A DNA stretch of 64,000 bases, filler included, from Collodictyon triciliatum (lineage: Eukaryota), in assembly GCA_043381765.1 (NCBI GenBank). It is 25 parts of 25 records of this genome, joined end to end, with 100 filler letters (N's around TTAATTAATTAA, not from the genome) between each part and the next. Parts side by side here need not be neighbours in the genome. Positions count along the whole stretch, not along the records: positions 12,252 to 14,628 come from JBHJMP010009000.1; 24 more parts are not named here. One strand, written 5' to 3'. Under the pieces are notes generated by a model, which was not told the origin of the DNA, did not search any database, and saw nothing but the letters and a program-made list of their open reading frames with translations. Shown here one piece after another: positions 11,831 to 24,443 of this stretch (its first letter is position 1; each line of letters begins with the position of its first letter). The translations under genes and the position numbers were made by a program.

Positions 11831-12251
11831 AGAGATATGTATATATAACGATATCATGAGGTTAATTTGCACAGTCGACAACAGAGCTAACTCACAAGAA
11901 AATGACAACACATTAACCTTGAAGTGCAAAGAAGGGAAGCAATTATAATTTCGTGCAGTATGGTTTCCTTTTATAACACCAAGATATCTTAATAAAATAA
12001 AATAAAATAAAAAGGTCGGGCAATTGTTTGGAATTGCATCTTTCTTTTTTTTTTTTTTTAATTTTATTTGTTTTTTTTTTATATAAAAAGACTTAGAAAA
12101 AAAATGCACCTAAAGATCGAGGTCAAACAGTTACTTTTTTTCAATTAGGTANNNNNNNNNNNNNNNNNNNNNNNNNNNNNNNNNNNNNNNNNNNNTTAAT
12201 TAATTAANNNNNNNNNNNNNNNNNNNNNNNNNNNNNNNNNNNNNNNNNNNN

Positions 12252-12310
<59 letters not shown>

Positions 12311-12513: not shown

Positions 12514-14492
12514 AAATCCAAAGCTTCTGGTTGTATTTGTTGTAATTACTTTTATGGTTTCATCAACATCCTCTGTATACCCTTTTCAAAGGTAATTTGA
12601 ATTTGAAAAGTGCATTCCGCTATAAAATTTCAACTCAAATATTGAAAACAGATGTCAGCATACAAGAGATGAGTTACTTGCCATGAAAGTTGAAGATGCA
12701 TTCCAAATCCTGCTGAGCTACTACGATGAAACATGTCCTTTGTTTAAAAAGCAGGACAAAAATTTTTCAGAATCTGACAATGCCCAAAAATTTGGAGAAC
12801 ATCTGTTCACAAATAGGCAAGGTGCTGAATGGAATTTTGACATGAAATTGCCATCCATTGAGAACAATTTAAACAAAAAAAATCAGTTGTCAAAGCATAT
12901 TGAGGTCAAGAAAAGAAGTTTGAGTAATGAAGGGAACCGAAAAAAGGCGGATAATTCATCTGTTACTCAATACGAACTCCTTGTTCAGCTTTATGATTTA
13001 CTTGGCGGCAATAATTGGTTTTATGCCACTGGATGGAAAATTAAAAGCATTCCTATTTGTGAGTGGCATGGGATATCATGTTATGATCGTTGTCTGGATA
13101 AAGATTTTAAGGTGATTTCTATAAATATTTTTAAGTGATATTGATTTAATATTGATACTATTTTTTTTTTTAGAACAACACATGCCCCGTCATCGGAATC
13201 AATTTGTCAGAAAATAATCTTTACGGTGACATCGAAGCTGCCTCTGCGATTTTTGATAGACTTCCATTTTTGCATTATTTGAATTTGAAATACAACTCTG
13301 TTTACGGGAATCTTCCAGATTTTAACCTTCCCAGTGTTTTGTATTTGGAACTTGATGTGAATCAACTTACCGGAACCATTCCAGACTTTCAAGCAATGCC
13401 AAATATTGAACATCTTGAGATTGATAGGAATGAACTAGAAGGCACAATTCCTGACTTTTCTGGAATTTCAAGTATAAAAGTCTTGATAATGGGAAAAAGT
13501 GATAAGATCGCAGGTATGAAATACTTTTTCAATATCAATAGTTCAATTCTAATTACACCAAATATTTTTTCAAGGAACCCTGCCTGAATTCTCTGGATTG
13601 CCGAATATTCATATTCTTGGGATTTACAGCTGCAAAGTTCATGGTTTTTTTTTTTTTATTGAATTAATTGAATCATTCCAATCAACACAGTCTAATTTTT
13701 TCTTTAGGAGTAATACCAAACTTCATGGGCATTCCGAATGTTTTGGAAATTTACCTGTTCAGTAGCCAATTAGCTGGTTATTTTCCTCATTAAATCATAA
13801 AAAATAATAACGAAATACTAACTTCATCTCGCAGGGACAGTTCCAAACTTCAGTGGAATTCATAGTGTTGAAATAATTATTCTTACCAATAATAAATTGA
13901 ATGGTAAGTTGAATGATTGTTCAATCAATCCCATTCCGCTTGAATCAAAAGTAAATTTGATCACTACACAGATAATTGATGAAAAAACGACCTTATACGA
14001 TAGGAAAAATTCCAAACTTCAATGGAATTCCGAATGTCAAAACAATTATTCTTACTAATAATCTGCTGAGTGGTATTAATTAATCATTATTTCTTCTATT
14101 ATTTAAATCAAATGAATGAAAAAATCTTATTAATCTGACAAATTACAACGCTCATATCACAGGAACGGTTCCAAACTTCAGTGGAATTTCAAAAGTCGAA
14201 ATAATTTATCTTGACAACAATCGCCTGACTGGTAGCTTTATGATAATTTAAACTAATATTAGGTGTCATATATTAATTTATACCACAGGAATGGTTCCAA
14301 ACTTCGATGGCATTCCAAATGTTGAATTAATTTCCCTATTTAGTAATCAACTGAATGGTGAGTATTATTATTGTTACCTTTAATATCGAAAAAAAAATAG
14401 TATAACTCTACACTGCAGGAACAATTCCAAATTTCGATGGCATTCCAAATGTTGAATTAATTTCTCTGTCCAGTAATAACCTGAATGGTGAG

Positions 14493-14586
<94 letters not shown>

Positions 14587-14628
14587 TTGATTATCGGTAA
14601 AAAAAATCTAACTCTGTATTATAGGAAC
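12514..14628 (+). CDS. Secreted/surface LRR protein with plant/stramenopile-type LRRs, 3' truncated; seven consecutive 69-nt LRR exons
   Basis: Signal-like LLVVFVVITFMVSSTSS; N-cap LVQLYDLLGGNNW..GW..ICEWHGISC; repeats LxLxxNxLxGxIPxF. 69-nt exons at 13575-13643, 13708-13776, 13835-13903, 14004-14072, 14163-14231, 14289-14357 and 14419-14487; the next exon starts at 14625. Confidence 0.9.
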
Positions 14629-15004
14629 NNNNNNNNNNNNNNNNNNNNNNNNNNNNNNNNNNNNNNNNNNNNTTAATTAATTAANNNNNNNNNNNNNNNN
14701 NNNNNNNNNNNNNNNNNNNNNNNNNNNNAAAAAAAAAAAAAAGAAGAGAAGAAAAAGAAGAGAAGAAAAAGAAGAGAAGAAAAAGAAGAGAAGAAAAAGA
14801 AGAGAAGAAAAAGAAGAAGAAGAAAAAGAAGAAGAAAAAGAAGAAGAAAAAGAAGAAGAAAAAGAAGAAGAAAAAGAAGAAGAAAAAGAAGAAAAAGAAA
14901 AAAAAAGAGAAGATTAAAAAGTGTCACTCGTGCTACTTGCCCGAACGAAAAACAGAGAAGAGAAAAAAACGAAGAGAAGATAAAGTCGCCGCTGCAACGA
15001 GCTC

Positions 15005-15369
15005 ATGGCACAGTGGCAGTCTTACGTGGACGATGTACTCGTCGGCTCTGGAAAGGTGACGCATGCTGCGATTCTAGGCTGGAATGGGGTGGTCTGGGCC
15101 AAAACAACGAGCTTTGAGGTTGGTAGCTCGTTCTTGCAAGGATAAGCAAGCGCGAAGTCCTTTCTAACTCATTTATTCGACCACCTTTGTTGCGCATGAA
15201 AGATTCAGCCTGAGGAGGGGGCGGCTTTGTCAACATTATTTCGCTCCCAAGAAGGCCCTCAAACAGCAACGGTTTCTGTTGGCGGAGTCCGCTACATGTT
15301 TCTTCGAGGAGATGACCGAACTGTACAGTGTAGAAAGGTAGGACTATCATTTCAAGTGTAGATATACCT

Positions 15370-15464
<95 letters not shown>

Positions 15465-15656
15465 TTATCCCCTCATGTGTGCGTGCTTGCTCATCCATTT
15501 TTTCCATTTGCTTATTTCAAGGGTTCCTCTGGTGTCGTTATAGCTCGAACAAAACAAGCTTTGGTTGTTGGCGCATATAATGAGACCATTATGCCAAATA
15601 TTGCAACGTTGGCCGTGGAAAAGCTTGCAGATTATCTGATGGATAATGGTGTGTAG
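15005..15656 (+). CDS. Profilin (127 aa; exons 15005-15118, 15203-15337, 15522-15656)
   Basis: MAQWQSYVDDVLVGSGKVTHAAILG..VGGVRYMFLRGDDRTVQCRK|GSSGVVIARTKQALVVGAY..VEKLADYLMDNGV*. Confidence 0.95.
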
Positions 15657-18167
15657 ATCATCGTGGGAGCAGCCTCTTTTGTGGTGAAATTATCAAAAGA
15701 CGCACTATAAAAGAACATTTAAGCACACATCATACGAGTAAGGGCCTTCCTTACAGACTAATGTTCATGATTATGAAAGCGCTCGCTTTTGTGATGGAAA
15801 GATACGTGAATGTCCAGCACTAAGAAAGATGCTTTCTTTTTATGTTGCTGCTGCTGCACTTTGGAATTATTGCTGGTGAAAAGCCACTGAATACAAATAT
15901 TCCAGCCCGTACAGTCTGTAATGTAAATCATTCACATTCATCGTTTACTCATCTAGAATCAGGATACATGAGCCTTATCATATTTATATGCACCATGCTA
16001 TCGCCAGGCTTGTATGCAAGTTTTTTTTTCTTGTGCAGCTTCAATACTAACACGTCAACTGGCATATACGTAGCTTTTGCGGCGTAGCGACTTTTAAAAT
16101 GGCATAACTTACTACAGATGCTGTAAAAATTCAAGGCCTTATTAGTATGAAAGGGGGTTTTTAGACAGGATACGAAATATAAGTTTAAGATATGACGTGC
16201 ACATCTGGTGATTTTTATACTCAGAAAAGTTGTGAAGCTATGATGTAGTTGGCAGTATGGATGATACTTTTCGTTAAGCACCTTTCTTTGTAAACTACAG
16301 ATATTGTTTGGTTAGACAACAAATTATTATCTTTTCTATCGCCAAAACTTTGATTAATCGTCGGCTTAGCATTGACATTCACGCATTCACAAATATGGCT
16401 TCGTGTGTGTAAACTTCGAGTGAAGAACTATTCTACAAATGAACTGTAAAAGTATGTACTAGAAAAGCCCATGGAGATAAAATGTGAAAACTCTAGAGCT
16501 TACCAAATTTCTCCTTTTATTCGATTCAAATGGTCCAGAGCTAACCTGTTTAAATGGTTTAAGAGAGAGGGAAAATTATAGGAGTATGTGTGACGAGTAG
16601 AAGTGTGGGCAAAGCAAACTGGAGATGCGTATGATACCATTTTTGTTACTAGAAAATATGATCAATATATATCTTTATTTTAAAAACAATAAGAATACTA
16701 ATAAATCTACCTTGCTGGATTTTTCTTATATTTCCTTTCAATTTCTGCAAGATGGTGGATGTTTGGCTTTGGTTCACTAATCGTCATTTATATGGGCGCT
16801 ACAATCCACCCTGCTGGATAATAAAATAAGTGAAATAACAAAGGGTGAGACAACGGCATACGAGGGGTGAATCTCAAACCACCATGGATACAATATAGTT
16901 CGCATTTGCATGTTTTAAAAATGGCAAATACGTGTTTCTTTCTTTTCTTTTCTTTTCTTTTTTTTCTTTTCTTTTTTTTTTTTGGAACGGATAAAGCGAA
17001 TCTTCTGGGATGCAGAATGGCGTCACACACAACAATTCACATAGTGAATCTATATGGGTCACCCATATCCAACACAGGCTAACAAAAACAAAAAATCAAA
17101 AAAAANNNNNNNNNNNNNNNNNNNNNNNNNNNNNNNNNNNNNNNNNNNNTTAATTAATTAANNNNNNNNNNNNNNNNNNNNNNNNNNNNNNNNNNNNNNN
17201 NNNNNTTTCTTTTTTCTTTTTTCTTTTTTCTTTTTTCTTTTTTCTTTTTTCTTTTTTCTTTTTTCTTTTTTCTTTTTTCTTTTTTCTTTTTTCTTTTTTC
17301 TTTGCCAGCATCTTGGAGGCCACAACGCGCGCTCTTGTTGCTGTGTTTCAGAGCGAATACTATGATCCATTTTGTCATGATGATTGTTTTGCTTTTCTTT
17401 CCTTTATGGAATGCTAATTCACACGAGTTAAATTTAAAATTCAGTACATTTCCTTATTAATAGTAATTTATTTATTTTAAATGTATTTGTTGATTTTTGG
17501 CTTAAAGATTGAATATGCTTTCCAAAACTGGTGCTCACGAAGTCGTATCTCATTATTGTGGAAAAATAAAACATACATACATAATTCAAAATTGTACCGG
17601 CGAAGACCATCATAAACCCAATAAAAATAGTCTATTAGTATATATTGATAGCTAAAAACATTTTGTGTCACAATCCTCATTCGAATCTTCTTCTGGCGGG
17701 GGTTTTCGTTTCAATTACTGCAAACCAGTTTTCAAAAATATCGATCTCTGCCTCACAGGAAACGTGGCGATTTCTGGTTGCGATGGACTCGCTCACAGGA
17801 AAACCCTTCTTCAGAGAACTGCTTGTGCGCTTATGCCACTGGCCAAAAACAACATTACAGTCACTCTATGACCAGCTGCAACATATTTTTGTTCTATCGT
17901 TGCGACCTCTGACGAAATAAAAAACCAATAAAAAAACCAATAAAAAAACCAATAAAAAAACCAATAAAAAAAACCAATAAAAAACCAATAAAAAAACCAA
18001 TAAAAAACNNNNNNNNNNNNNNNNNNNNNNNNNNNNNNNNNCCAATAAAAAAACCAATAAAAAAGCCAATAAAAAACCAATAAAAAAACAAAAAAACAAA
18101 AACAAAAACGAAGCAGATCAAAAGCCGTTCCGCTATTGAGTGATCTGTTTAAAATGAAGCGCAAACC

Positions 18168-19582: not shown

Positions 19583-19684
19583 NNNNNNNNNNNNNNNNNN
19601 NNNNNNNNNNNNNNNNNNNNNNNNNNTTAATTAATTAANNNNNNNNNNNNNNNNNNNNNNNNNNNNNNNNNNNNNNNNNNNNCA

Positions 19685-22058
19685 GACGGACTCGCCATTA
19701 CATCAACCAACCCTTCCATTTCGGTCATGAGCTCGCCTCCAAGAGTGATATCTGTCTCCAACGGATGCGGATACTATGTCAATGTGCAGTGGAGCTCCTG
19801 CAGTAATAGCCTTGGTGGCGGACTCGGACTCGTCAACTTGAATCTACCCAAGATTACTCAAATAGCAGTGACTGTCACAGATACTAAAATCACGAGTGCC
19901 AATGACCTATCAACAACTGTTGGCATACCCACGAAGAGCAACCTGAAGGTCATGTGCACGTTTGAGAATGGAAAGCAAAGTGACTACACATTAGACTCCA
20001 GGACAAACTATGACGACACTACTGCCGATACAAGCAATATAATCCAAATTGAGACGGCAATGGTGTCATCCAGCATCACAGAGGTCTATGTGGTTGCAAC
20101 AGGCAATGGCTTCGGAACCGCGACGATAGTAGTGACAGTCAACAACGCACTGAGTTTGCAAGGAAGCGTGGACATCAATGTGATTGGATTTGCGTCGCTG
20201 CGTGTCTCGTCCAGTCCATATCCAACATACACAGGCTCCAGCACAGTGTTACTGACAAAGCTGACTCGCTATGAGTGCGCACAAGTCTATCAAAGAGCGA
20301 CGCTGGCATTGTCCATGAGACTAACTGACAACTCTGTGCATGACATCACGTCAAAACCATTGACCGTATTCTCTGTACCCACAAGTCAGCAAAATGTTTT
20401 GGTTATCAAAGACAAAACAGTTCTTGAACCAACTGGCACAAACTTCGGAAATGCTACAATCACAGCCTCATACGGAGATGCGTCAGCTACAATAGACGTC
20501 GTGGTTGCGGACGAAACTGTGAGTGCAACATCGCTAGCAACCGTGTTTCCGTCAACATACACTGGTATCATCGGAACATCAACACAAAGCATCAAAGCGA
20601 CTGCCGTGTTCCAAGACGGAACAAAACATCCAACGGCTCACTCCATCACTGGCCTATTATCTTACACCAGCGATGACCCGACTTCAATAGCTATGGACAC
20701 CGCAGGAACTGCAACCATAAAAGCAAACTCACTCAGTATTGTAACGCTTACATCATCAACATGTTATGGAGTCGTAGGAACGTCGAGCACCTATGCCAAT
20801 CTTGGTCCGAATGTCGGCGATGTCGATATTGGAAGCACGAGCGGCCTTGCATTGAGTAACATCGCAGTCGGGTCCAGCTTGACAGTTCCTGTTCGTGTCA
20901 ACACGGGAACAAAGGCACTTGGAAGTATCGATAGTAGTCTTGTGTATGACGCAGACATATTCGATGTAATATCCTACTCTACTGGAAGTAGCTGGCCAGG
21001 TGGACAGTTAGAGATTACGCTGAACGACCCACCGGGAGTCATTCGCATTGTGGGAGCGACAAGTGCAACCAGCAACTCAAAGGGCACATTGGAGGTTGTC
21101 AAGCTAGTCATCACAAGCAAACAGAACGGACTATCATACTTTGCTGGCTTCATAACCAAGATGCTAGCTAACGATGCAGCGTCTTCGCCAATCGGAAGCA
21201 CACTTGGGCAAGGAGAGACAAGAGCAATAGTGGCTGGTAACGCTCCAGTAAAGAGCGGAACGGGCATCAATTCGAGGGCTTCTTTGAGTAATGGAATGAA
21301 TTTGGTTCTGGGACATCAAAGAACTGAAGCCATACAACAAGTTGGCAGGAAATCACAGACATGCGAACCAGCTGCTGTTCTTGGAAATACAGACGGAGAC
21401 TGCGAGTTCTCAGTCGGCGATGTCCAGTTTACATTGAGATATCTGGCCGGACTGGTCTCGGCACCAGTCCAGTCCTACCAACTTCAATACTTGGATGCGG
21501 ACAGAAATGGTAAGATTCAAGTACAAGATGCGATATACTTGATTCGAGTGCTGGCAAACAAATGGCGATTCTTCAATGTCCGCACCATAGCACCCACAAT
21601 ATCCAGCTCATATCTCCAAGTTTCAGTTGACTCGCAGACAGCTGATATGGTGTACTCGTCGGCCAAGACGTCATATGATATAATTTTCTTGACAACATTG
21701 AACACAGATATGAGGATTACATTAGGGACAAACAAACAGACGTTGGCCGAAGGGCTACAGGTATCGGGCCAGGACTTCAACAACGGAACGTTCAGTGTCA
21801 TTGGAAATACATACAGGTCAGAGGTTATTGGTGTCTCCATCCATCTGAAGACTGTCGACGGTCTTGGGCAGTCATCGAATGACCGAGACGTAACATTATA
21901 TCAAGGAGTAGGAGGCACGTATGTGAGTTTTACAACAATAGCCGCTATATTTGACGCAACCCAATCCCAATCCCAATCCCAATCCCAATCCCAATCCCAA
22001 TCCCAATCCCAATCCCAATCCCAATCCCAATCCCAATCCCAATCCCAATCCCAATCCC
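19685..22058 (+). CDS. Large intronless surface protein: TMEM132-like bacterial-Ig (BIG) repeats, cohesin domain (~20860-21250), dockerin (~21380-21565), QS repeat; open at both contig ends
   Basis: More than 790 aa open frame, rich in Thr/Ser/Val. Cohesin-like VGSSLTVPVRVNTGTKALGSIDSSLVYDADIFDV..PPGVIRIVG..GTLEVVKL. Dockerin duplicated Ca-loops GNTDGDCEFSVGDVQFTLRYLAG and DADRNGKIQVQDAIYLIRVLA. Confidence 0.8.
21960..22058 (+). repeat. (CCAATC)n coding microsatellite = (QS)n
   Basis: In frame at the end of the 19685 ORF. Confidence 0.9.
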
Positions 22059-23182: not shown

Positions 23183-24265
23183 TTTTTTTTCCTATATTCG
23201 ATTCAAAATGCAGCGAAGTTATGCCATACAAAGGGGCGGGATGGGAGCGCATGGTAGAGAGCGAACGCGAGTAGGAGAAGACACTACCGTGGAGAGGGTA
23301 GCACTGGAAAGAAATCAGTGATAGCGAGTTGGTCAGGTGGGCGACCCAACTGGTTGATTGGTTGCGTGGGTAGCAGGGGTTGGATATGCTGTGGGAGATA
23401 TCGCACGACACATTCCCACATCTCTATCCGCTTGCAGTCAGAGTAGCGAAGAACGCGGGCGTGTTTCAGCAGGCTGTTCAGGAAGCTGCATTGCACGAGG
23501 CTTTCTGTCATGGATATATTGATTTCTCGTTCGTTCGAATCATTAGAGTGAGAGAATGCACGCACACTCCATAAGGGCCACAGCATATGTCCCCTTGTGA
23601 CTGTCCAGAGTATTCTAGAGTCGTGGGTCATTTGGTATTGTGCACCAAACAGGATGTCAGACGCGCTGAGTCGGTTGGGAGCATAATCAAGGTCAGAGAG
23701 CATCTTGTGGGTAGACTCTGTCACTTTTTGAGCAAGGGAGCACTTCGCAAATGTGTGTTTGATAGAGTCGTCTCCACTATGGCACATGGTGCATTCTGGA
23801 GAGGTCGTTGCTGCATGGACTACGTACACAACTATCCACAGCTCTCTGTTGGAGATATTGAGCAGTAGGGCGCGGTGTTTCGGGAGTAACTGAGGTAATC
23901 GGGCTTGCTTCCAGCTTTTGACTATTGGCGGGTCTATAATGCCTATAGTTTCGGCCCAACGACTCATCTTCTCCGGTTTGTAAGGATTCGGACTGATGAT
24001 TTTATATCGAAACAGCTTGGAGTATGCCATGGCCATCGAGAAATGCAGAGAATCAGGCGTAATGGACCGCCTTTGGTTCTTCAGGCGAAAGAAAAATGGC
24101 AACGGCGCTCCGTATGAGATGGGGCGACGTGAGCGCCATTCTCCTTTGTTTTTCGGGACGGCTGTGGTTGGGGTTGTTTCTTTGGGGTGTAATCTTTTAT
24201 CTTCCTTGTTTGGTTCAAGAAAAGATATCTTGAATTTAGTAGTTTTATTCTTAACTTTACTGCCG
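23183..24265 (-). mobile_element. 5'-truncated L1/Tx1-like LINE: ORF2 C-terminus (zf-RVT/CCHC), ~95-nt 3' UTR and poly(A)
   Basis: ORF 23284-24102 has SPECTMCHSGDDSIKHTFAKC and LWPLWSVR. The 3' UTR is near-identical to 27111-27277 and ends ...gaatcgaatatagga(A)n. Confidence 0.85.
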
Positions 24266-24443
24266 CTTCACATTCTTACCTTCACTTTACGCATGATAGT
24301 CTCATTTAGATTAAGATAAAAGAATATAAACAGCTCAAACTCTACATAGATTTAGAGGAATTGTCAAATGTCGAAGGAGGTAAGCTAGTTCAGAGCAATG
24401 GAGAGGTCTTTTTTCACGCTTGATTTATTTTTGTTATAAATGT

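Follow-up and report, generated by a model that had tools for sequence, protein, structure and literature searches.

Genes in which every leucine-rich repeat (LRR) occupies a symmetric exon of its own have been described in a short list of eukaryotes. In the ROCO genes of Ectocarpus each LRR is a single 72-nt exon coding for the unit GxxPxxLxxxxxLxxLxLxxNxLx (Zambounis et al. 2012, PMC3341825), and the LRR exons of brown-algal ROCO genes are reported to be 72 bp long, in phase 2 and alternatively spliced (Teng et al. 2024, PMC11378527). Tetrahymena has nearly 50,000 LRR exons of exactly 90 bp in thousands of genes, with more than 96-98% of the introns in phase 2 (Xiong et al. 2019, PMC6564038). 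The single-LRR, in-phase exons of the gonadotropin/luteinising hormone (LH) receptors are a classic case of exon duplication (cited in PMC11378527). These three papers describe arrays comparable to the one considered here, in line with the precedent from Tetrahymena and Ectocarpus named by a first-pass annotation of our locus. That locus lies in a 64-kb stretch of DNA from Collodictyon triciliatum (assembly GCA_043381765.1; hereafter the window), where one gene has seven consecutive exons of 69 nt, referred to below as cassettes c1-c7, with one repeat in each. It belongs to the known class of LRR genes with one repeat per exon, here with 69-nt exons in phase 1, and its array probably grew in tandem long ago by duplication of exon and intron together.

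All cassettes are located on the plus strand of a single contig (12252-14628, 2377 nt, GC 0.298): c1 at 13575-13643, c2 at 13708-13776, c3 at 13835-13903, c4 at 14004-14072, c5 at 14163-14231, c6 at 14289-14357 and c7 at 14419-14487. Each is exactly 69 nt long, is preceded by AG and followed by GT, runs from the second base of one Gly codon to a final G, the first base of the following Gly codon, and is therefore in phase 1-1. The peptide of c1 is GTLPEFSGLPNIHILGIYSCKVH. Both strands of the whole window were scanned for AG, 69 nt open in phase 1, and GT; among the 128 candidates found (75 on the plus and 53 on the minus strand) only c1-c7 are LRR-like. The scan reproduced exactly the positions and peptides which the first-pass annotation had given for seven 69-nt exons with a split Gly codon. 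It had also placed the beginning of an eighth exon at 14625. The TAG acceptor in front of it is real, yet only four nucleotides of this cassette (GAAC, 14625-14628) precede the end of the contig, and a run of N starts at 14629.

The repeat unit comprises 23 residues with the consensus GxIPNFxGIxxVxxIxLxxNxLx, and each intron interrupts the Gly codon of the NxLxG|xIP turn behind its first base. The 23-residue period is kept in all seven cassettes as well as in two intronless units of the preceding exon 2. The latter (13174-13513, plus strand, 340 nt) contains about 4.5 LRRs uninterrupted by introns, and its final G opens the split Gly codon. It scores above the Pfam cut-offs for LRR_4 (30.2 bits, cut-off 27), LRR_1 (26.9 bits, cut-off 20.6) and LRR_8 (27.4 bits, cut-off 27), which bears out the intronless LRR block annotated here earlier; its boundaries agree with the alignment to the homologue P0007 and with three relatives (P0280, P0281 and P0282, see below). 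Judging by these matches, the gene is a member of the leucine-rich repeat superfamily.

Exon 2 is separated by a 62-nt phase 0 intron (13112-13173, plus strand, GT…AG) from exon 1 (12686-13111, plus strand, 142 codons, phase 0 at the 3' end), which was delimited by its open frame, the P0007 alignment and the relatives. It would code for the N-terminal region and the LRR N-terminal cap (…LLVQLYDLLGGNNW…ICEWHGISC…); the match of the cap to LRRNT_2 is weak (E 0.05, 14.3 bits, under the cut-off of 20.7). The translation start was presumably the ATG at 12686, retained in the model because four exon-1 relatives begin at the equivalent Met. A possible 38-nt upstream exon (ATG 12554, positions 12554-12591, donor GT at 12592), followed by a 60-nt intron and joined in frame at 12652, would add 24 residues and still leave the protein without a signal peptide. 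Joined by their coordinates, the nine exons give 416 codons free of stops.

P0007 (1504 aa) and P0005 (1806 aa) are Diphylleia rotans transcript proteins from EukProt. The nine-exon model aligns with P0007 in a single colinear BLASTP segment (query residues 65-396, subject residues 114-443; 32% identity over 332 residues, E 7e-51). In pairwise BLASTP, residues 66-142 of exon 1 correspond to P0007 115-189, and residues 1-107 of exon 2 to P0007 190-296 with 46% identity. Since exons 1 and 2 abut on P0007 at 189|190, the junction of the first intron is supported. Both Diphylleia proteins resemble the gene in the N-terminal cap, in the '…C…NNTCPV…NNL.GDI' junction and in an extended array of 23-residue GxIPxF units, so that the colinear arrangement of cap and 23-residue LRR array seen in P0007 is found here as well.

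The introns of the array, from the one upstream of c1 to the one downstream of c7, measure 61, 64, 58, 100, 90, 57, 61 and 137 nt, and all have GT…AG borders. In the seven introns preceding cassettes GC content is 0.20-0.32, as compared to 0.29-0.42 in the exons. Retention of any of these seven would damage the reading frame: five shift it, and the other two, being multiples of three, carry in-frame stops.

Nucleotide identity among the cassettes is uneven. Cassettes c3-c7 form a related block with identities of 71-86%, c2 is 57-68% identical to its members, and c1 shares only 46-54% with the other cassettes, which is no more than the two intronless 23-residue exon-2 units do (0.41-0.61). The closest pair, c6 and c7, shares 59 of 69 positions (86%) and differs by 4.5 synonymous and 5.5 nonsynonymous changes, or about 0.29 synonymous differences per synonymous site (4.5/15.7). 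The introns following these two exons (14358-14418, 61 nt, and 14488-14624, 137 nt, both on the plus strand) are also related: they have in common the GTGAGT donor, ATT repeats and the succession TTACCTT…TATCG…A-run…TAACTCT. Their local alignment reached z=7.8 against shuffles, with the next best intron pair at z=3.7 and the remainder at background. The greater length of the second intron comes with an (ATT)30 tract detected by Tandem Repeats Finder at 14495-14584. This shows one younger duplication that produced c6 and c7 with their downstream introns. Because these introns can be aligned, the duplicated unit was the exon plus the following intron, and because the other introns have lost all similarity to each other, the rest of the array must be old. 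The first-pass annotation had described the last two exons and their GTGAGT-ttattatt donors as near-identical and the products of a recent duplication of exon and intron. The duplication itself stands, and the introns are homologous apart from (ATT)30, but exons with 86% identity cannot be called near-identical.

Selection was assessed by the Nei-Gojobori method among c3-c7, a weak test as the sequences compared are repeats within one gene, not alleles or orthologues. The pN/pS ratio was 0.07 for the framework, 0.83 for the five x positions of the concave face and 1.01 for the other x positions. The framework value indicates purifying selection for a functional fold. The x positions are near neutral and under relaxed constraint, as is usual for LRRs, where the scaffold is fixed and the x positions are free. 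A conserved framework with variable strand positions had been noticed before and is confirmed by these ratios (0.07 vs 0.83-1.01). The excess of variation at concave-face sites that had been thought possible did not appear, as 0.83 is not above 1 in this weak comparison of repeats of one gene.

Relatives of the gene were sought with both upstream exons. An exhaustive HMMER search with exon 1 matched 850 proteins at E<=1e-3, of which 150 matches were listed. Most matches cover the cap alone (approximately residues 90-135), often many times per protein. Among the 150 listed, four proteins of 141-155 aa (P0144, P0154, P0169 and P0175) span the whole of exon 1 with 32-37% identity; they start at the same Met, extend a few residues past the conserved exon end and come from NCBI-sourced contigs of 521-1155 bp. 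A word search of exon 1 against longer proteins scored none of 78 candidates. The near-length search with exon 2 yielded four proteins among eight candidates, three of them clear relatives (P0280, 67% identity; P0281, 65%; P0282, 51%) encoded on contigs of 547-986 bp. Their reading frames end or run on directly past the Gly that closes exon 2. P0282 continues with 18 in-frame non-LRR residues, then GTLPDFSSLVSVENIGIYESKITG, a 23-residue unit homologous to c1, and then another non-LRR stretch; read from the protein, this would correspond to a 69-nt exon between a 57-nt phase 1 intron and the intron that follows. By the evidence of four exon-1 and three exon-2 relatives, the gene is not single-copy and belongs to a multi-copy family, which removes the single-copy gene that the first-pass annotation had listed as speaking against its own reading.

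Three public sequencing runs were compared as assembled contigs and cover parts of the locus: two 151-nt contigs without differences, a 212-nt contig with two and a 262-nt contig with two. None of the runs listed contains half or more of the sampled words of the stretch. Run X2 (coded organism A, possibly RNA) includes two contigs with intronless LRR units in exact 69-nt register. In the first, units start at 65 and 134; in the second, 1304 nt long, the starts are 449 and 725, a distance of 4x69. These contigs represent either spliced mRNA or intronless relatives.

A metagenome scan with the exon-1 alignment returned five loci, none of which has an array of LRR-like exons of 60-81 nt. Four (L001-L004) match the cap only. 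The fifth, L005, was rejected as a relative: it is the C-terminal end of an unrelated open reading frame (ORF) that shares 'EAFEILLSYYD'. The cap motif also occurs in metagenome-source proteins of 1744-3508 aa (P0131-P0143), where '…LY…G..W….W…..C.W.GV.C' is repeated 5 to 20 times per protein; these are chains of many cap and LRR modules, like P0001 and P0002. Of the 337 candidates in a word search, 116 were LRR proteins with E<=1e-3. As many of these are bacterial or plant, the repeat type is widespread.

In addition to the cap and the array, the transcript-derived P0007 and P0005 begin with a signal peptide and possess a stretch rich in Cys as well as a hydrophobic, multi-pass C-terminal part. 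No Pfam family was matched in the C-terminal part of the Diphylleia proteins, and the only Atlas leads for it are the Ephrin_rec_like and TRP-like membrane clusters. In one related Diphylleia transcript cluster, the four sequences aligned vary at the C-terminus only and never by an LRR cassette. The differences in length between Diphylleia isoforms were also considered as multiples of 23 residues; this was rejected, as they are due to C-terminal truncations.

We propose that the 416 codons on the contig form the 5' portion of a gene which would code for a large plant-type LRR receptor-like protein from a small-to-moderate family, with one 23-residue repeat per 69-nt exon from the fifth or sixth repeat on. 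The array would have grown by tandem duplication of an exon with its downstream intron, probably through unequal crossing-over. Since the duplicated unit consists of both, every new repeat would inherit the intron position and phase. Block c3-c7 would then be the expanded part of the array, c6/c7 its youngest pair, and c1 and c2 old, position-specific repeats. Constitutive removal of all introns would be the simplest case; the product would then be an unbroken LRR solenoid, with a ligand possibly bound on its concave sheet. Beyond the contig end the protein may go on with numerous further LRRs, a region rich in Cys and a part that crosses the membrane several times, as suggested by the colinear homology with P0007. 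Any function proposed for the gene derives from its LRR membership.

Several observations weigh against this proposal or parts of it. The C-terminal architecture which the protein may have is extrapolated from a homologue with only 32-46% identity. With regard to an extracellular location, no hydrophobic leader or signal peptide was seen at the modelled start MKVEDAFQILL… by eye, no predictor having been run. A history of duplication from a single founder is not demonstrated for all seven cassettes, since c1 resembles c3-c7 no more closely than the intronless units do. None of the public runs listed is an RNA run containing this gene, and an X2 contig matching the locus at 14096-14357 with two differences is unspliced.

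The anatomy of the array can also be read, as the first-pass annotation did, in terms of a modular, actively diversifying system for immune or prey sensing, with cassettes being skipped, duplicated and swapped between loci as proposed for brown-algal ROCO genes. With all cassettes 69 nt long and in phase 1-1, any such skip, duplication or swap would stay in frame; a gene family is present, one duplication of exon and intron is seen, and brown-algal ROCO LRR exons of like design are alternatively spliced according to PMC11378527. The variation of x positions against a fixed framework fits this picture too, but it is general to all LRRs, and the ratios obtained here among only seven repeats of one gene (0.83 for the concave face, 1.01 for other x positions) are not above 1. 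Moreover, with about 0.29 synonymous differences per site already accumulated in the youngest pair and all other introns unalignable, turnover within the gene must be slow. The four aligned Diphylleia cluster sequences, varying at the C-terminus only, and the lack of the gene in RNA runs among those listed likewise count against this reading, and we regard active diversification of this kind as unlikely. We are equally doubtful about a third independent cassette system, in which 69-nt phase 1 LRR exons would be duplicated, exchanged and alternatively spliced genome-wide to give a variable receptor repertoire in a little-studied protist lineage, in parallel with the brown-algal ROCO and Tetrahymena LRR genes, although the existence of a family, the single younger duplication and the two X2 contigs in 69-nt register are compatible with it.

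The origin of the introns could be different from the one we propose: each repeat may have acquired its intron separately, at an identical site and once the array already existed, through a proto-splice-site preference or an introner-like element. Such a history would account for the missing similarity in six of the seven comparable introns, for the upstream repeats of exon 2, which have the same Gly position and no intron, and for c1 being as far from c3-c7 as the intronless units are. However, it would need eight insertions at the exact same codon base, and in c6/c7, the sole pair young enough to judge, exon and intron were duplicated together. The same intron position is also found in relatives that are 51-67% identical, and the intron comparisons within the array revealed no repeated sequence suggestive of a mobile element. 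Of the readings considered this appears the most improbable. Hardly more credible is a dead fragment, i.e., a pseudogene or assembly debris rather than a working gene. It is true that the contig is just 2377 bp long with microsatellites at both bounds, that the gene is truncated, and that neither a signal peptide nor an RNA run with the gene was found among those listed. A decayed copy is nevertheless hard to reconcile with 416 codons open through nine exons, a framework pN/pS of 0.07 and all eight GT…AG intron pairs being intact, and other public runs, one of which may represent the source sample, contain fragments of the locus with 0 to 2 differences. We retain a real gene with an old array, built by duplication of exon and intron, as the likely explanation.

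The gene breaks off where the contig ends (14628), 4 nt beyond the intron bearing (ATT)30, and the first bases of the same contig are a (TAA)18 microsatellite (12252-12305, Tandem Repeats Finder). The source genome looks like an AT-rich protist genome rich in introns and microsatellites, and Diphylleia supplies the closest homologues that bear a species name, with identities of only 32-46%. Beyond 14628 there is a non-genomic assembly linker of the form N44-TTAATTAATTAA-N44 (14629-14728) leading to an unrelated contig, and a further linker of the same kind occupies 12152-12251. The window contains 50 N runs; paired 44-N runs around the twelve letters TTAATTAATTAA divide it into 25 segments, which, as defined by the linker positions, are mostly 2367-2380 nt long and sorted by decreasing length. 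The window is thus a string of small, unrelated, unplaced contigs with linkers carrying stops in all frames between them. Because of this composition, genes on either side of a linker are not adjacent in the genome. Contig GC ranges from 0.298 to 0.525 across the window, possibly reflecting mixed origin or strong heterogeneity of the contigs.

The contig next in order (14729-17105) opens with a purine-rich 14-mer repeat and contains a profilin gene read as three exons (15005-15655, plus strand), whose exon 1 (15005-15118) matches Pfam Profilin with E 1.7e-09 and whose second intron contains a long (TTTA)n tract. Being on a different contig, this gene is uninformative about the genomic context of the LRR gene. 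An intronless histone H2A gene of 150 aa (52346-52795, minus strand), scoring above the cut-offs of Histone and Histone_H2A_C, lies on contig 51848-54217, where GC content is 0.465, far above the 0.298 of the LRR contig; its Atlas matches were generic histone clusters only. A 327-aa open frame (23287-24267, minus strand) matches zf-RVT just under the cut-off (E 1.5e-05, 26.0 bits, cut-off 27.5) and is probably the tail of a non-LTR (lacking long terminal repeats) retrotransposon. Two longer intronless open frames match no Pfam family: one of 791 aa (19685-22057, plus strand), which fills contig 19683-22058 (GC 0.474) and has (SQ)n at the contig edge, and one of 651 aa (25058-27010, minus strand) with many hydrophobic stretches. 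A degenerate tandem repeat at 37454-39336 on contig 37011-39384 (GC 0.525) is open in several frames on both strands (…CEADFVDVRHSGEPSWVL…).

Among solved structures, those closest to the protein by sequence are the ectodomains of plant LRR receptor kinases (MIK2, FLS2, GSO1, BRI1 and ERL1/2) and also PGIP, with E-values of 1e-40 to 1e-16. The plant LRR receptor-like kinase ectodomains and the gene have the LxxLxLxxNxLxGxIP motif class in common; no kinase domain is seen here. The plant-type (PS-like) LRR repeat has 24 residues, from which the 23-residue period of the gene differs. Our literature search found no paper joining a 69-bp or 69-nt exon with LRRs, and nothing of relevance on LRRs in Reticulomyxa or Diphylleia. 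Plant genes of the ERECTA type carry LRRs in single 72-bp exons, another architecture for which the search found no paper.

The brown-algal ROCO genes are similar to our gene in having one LRR per exon, units that begin with the Gly of GxxP, symmetric exons of equal length, a plant-type motif and tandem arrays in a gene family. The seven cassettes, all equal in length, divisible by three and in the same phase, follow the one-LRR-per-exon pattern without exception. The two differ in exon length and phase, which are 69 nt and phase 1 here and 72 nt and phase 2 in the brown algae (PMC11378527). ROC-COR domains, shuffling between loci, positive selection and alternative splicing are further brown-algal ROCO features in the same sources, and our gene ends before its C-terminus. 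With Tetrahymena the gene shares tandem LRR exons of equal length and introns of one phase, explained by duplication of exon and intron; unlike the 90-bp, phase 2 exons of the ciliate (PMC6564038), the exons here are 69 bp long, in phase 1 and open in the standard genetic code. The gonadotropin/LH receptors are more distant in kind: they are animal G protein-coupled receptors with phase 2 introns according to PMC11378527, and have another LRR class and other exon lengths. Since both exon length and phase differ from those of the brown-algal and Tetrahymena systems, the comparison argues for an independent origin of the 69-nt phase 1 array, a separate origin of an architecture already known.

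For now the locus, known from its sequence alone and cut short by the contig end, is a tidy, textbook-like case. Should the family prove large and its transcripts alternatively spliced, a single-celled eukaryote would provide a further candidate system for generating receptor diversity by combination. The gene adds to the short list of eukaryotes with one repeat per symmetric exon a further lineage, distinct in both the length (69 nt) and the phase (1) of its exons, and supports the repeated emergence of such architecture by tandem duplication of an exon together with its intron.

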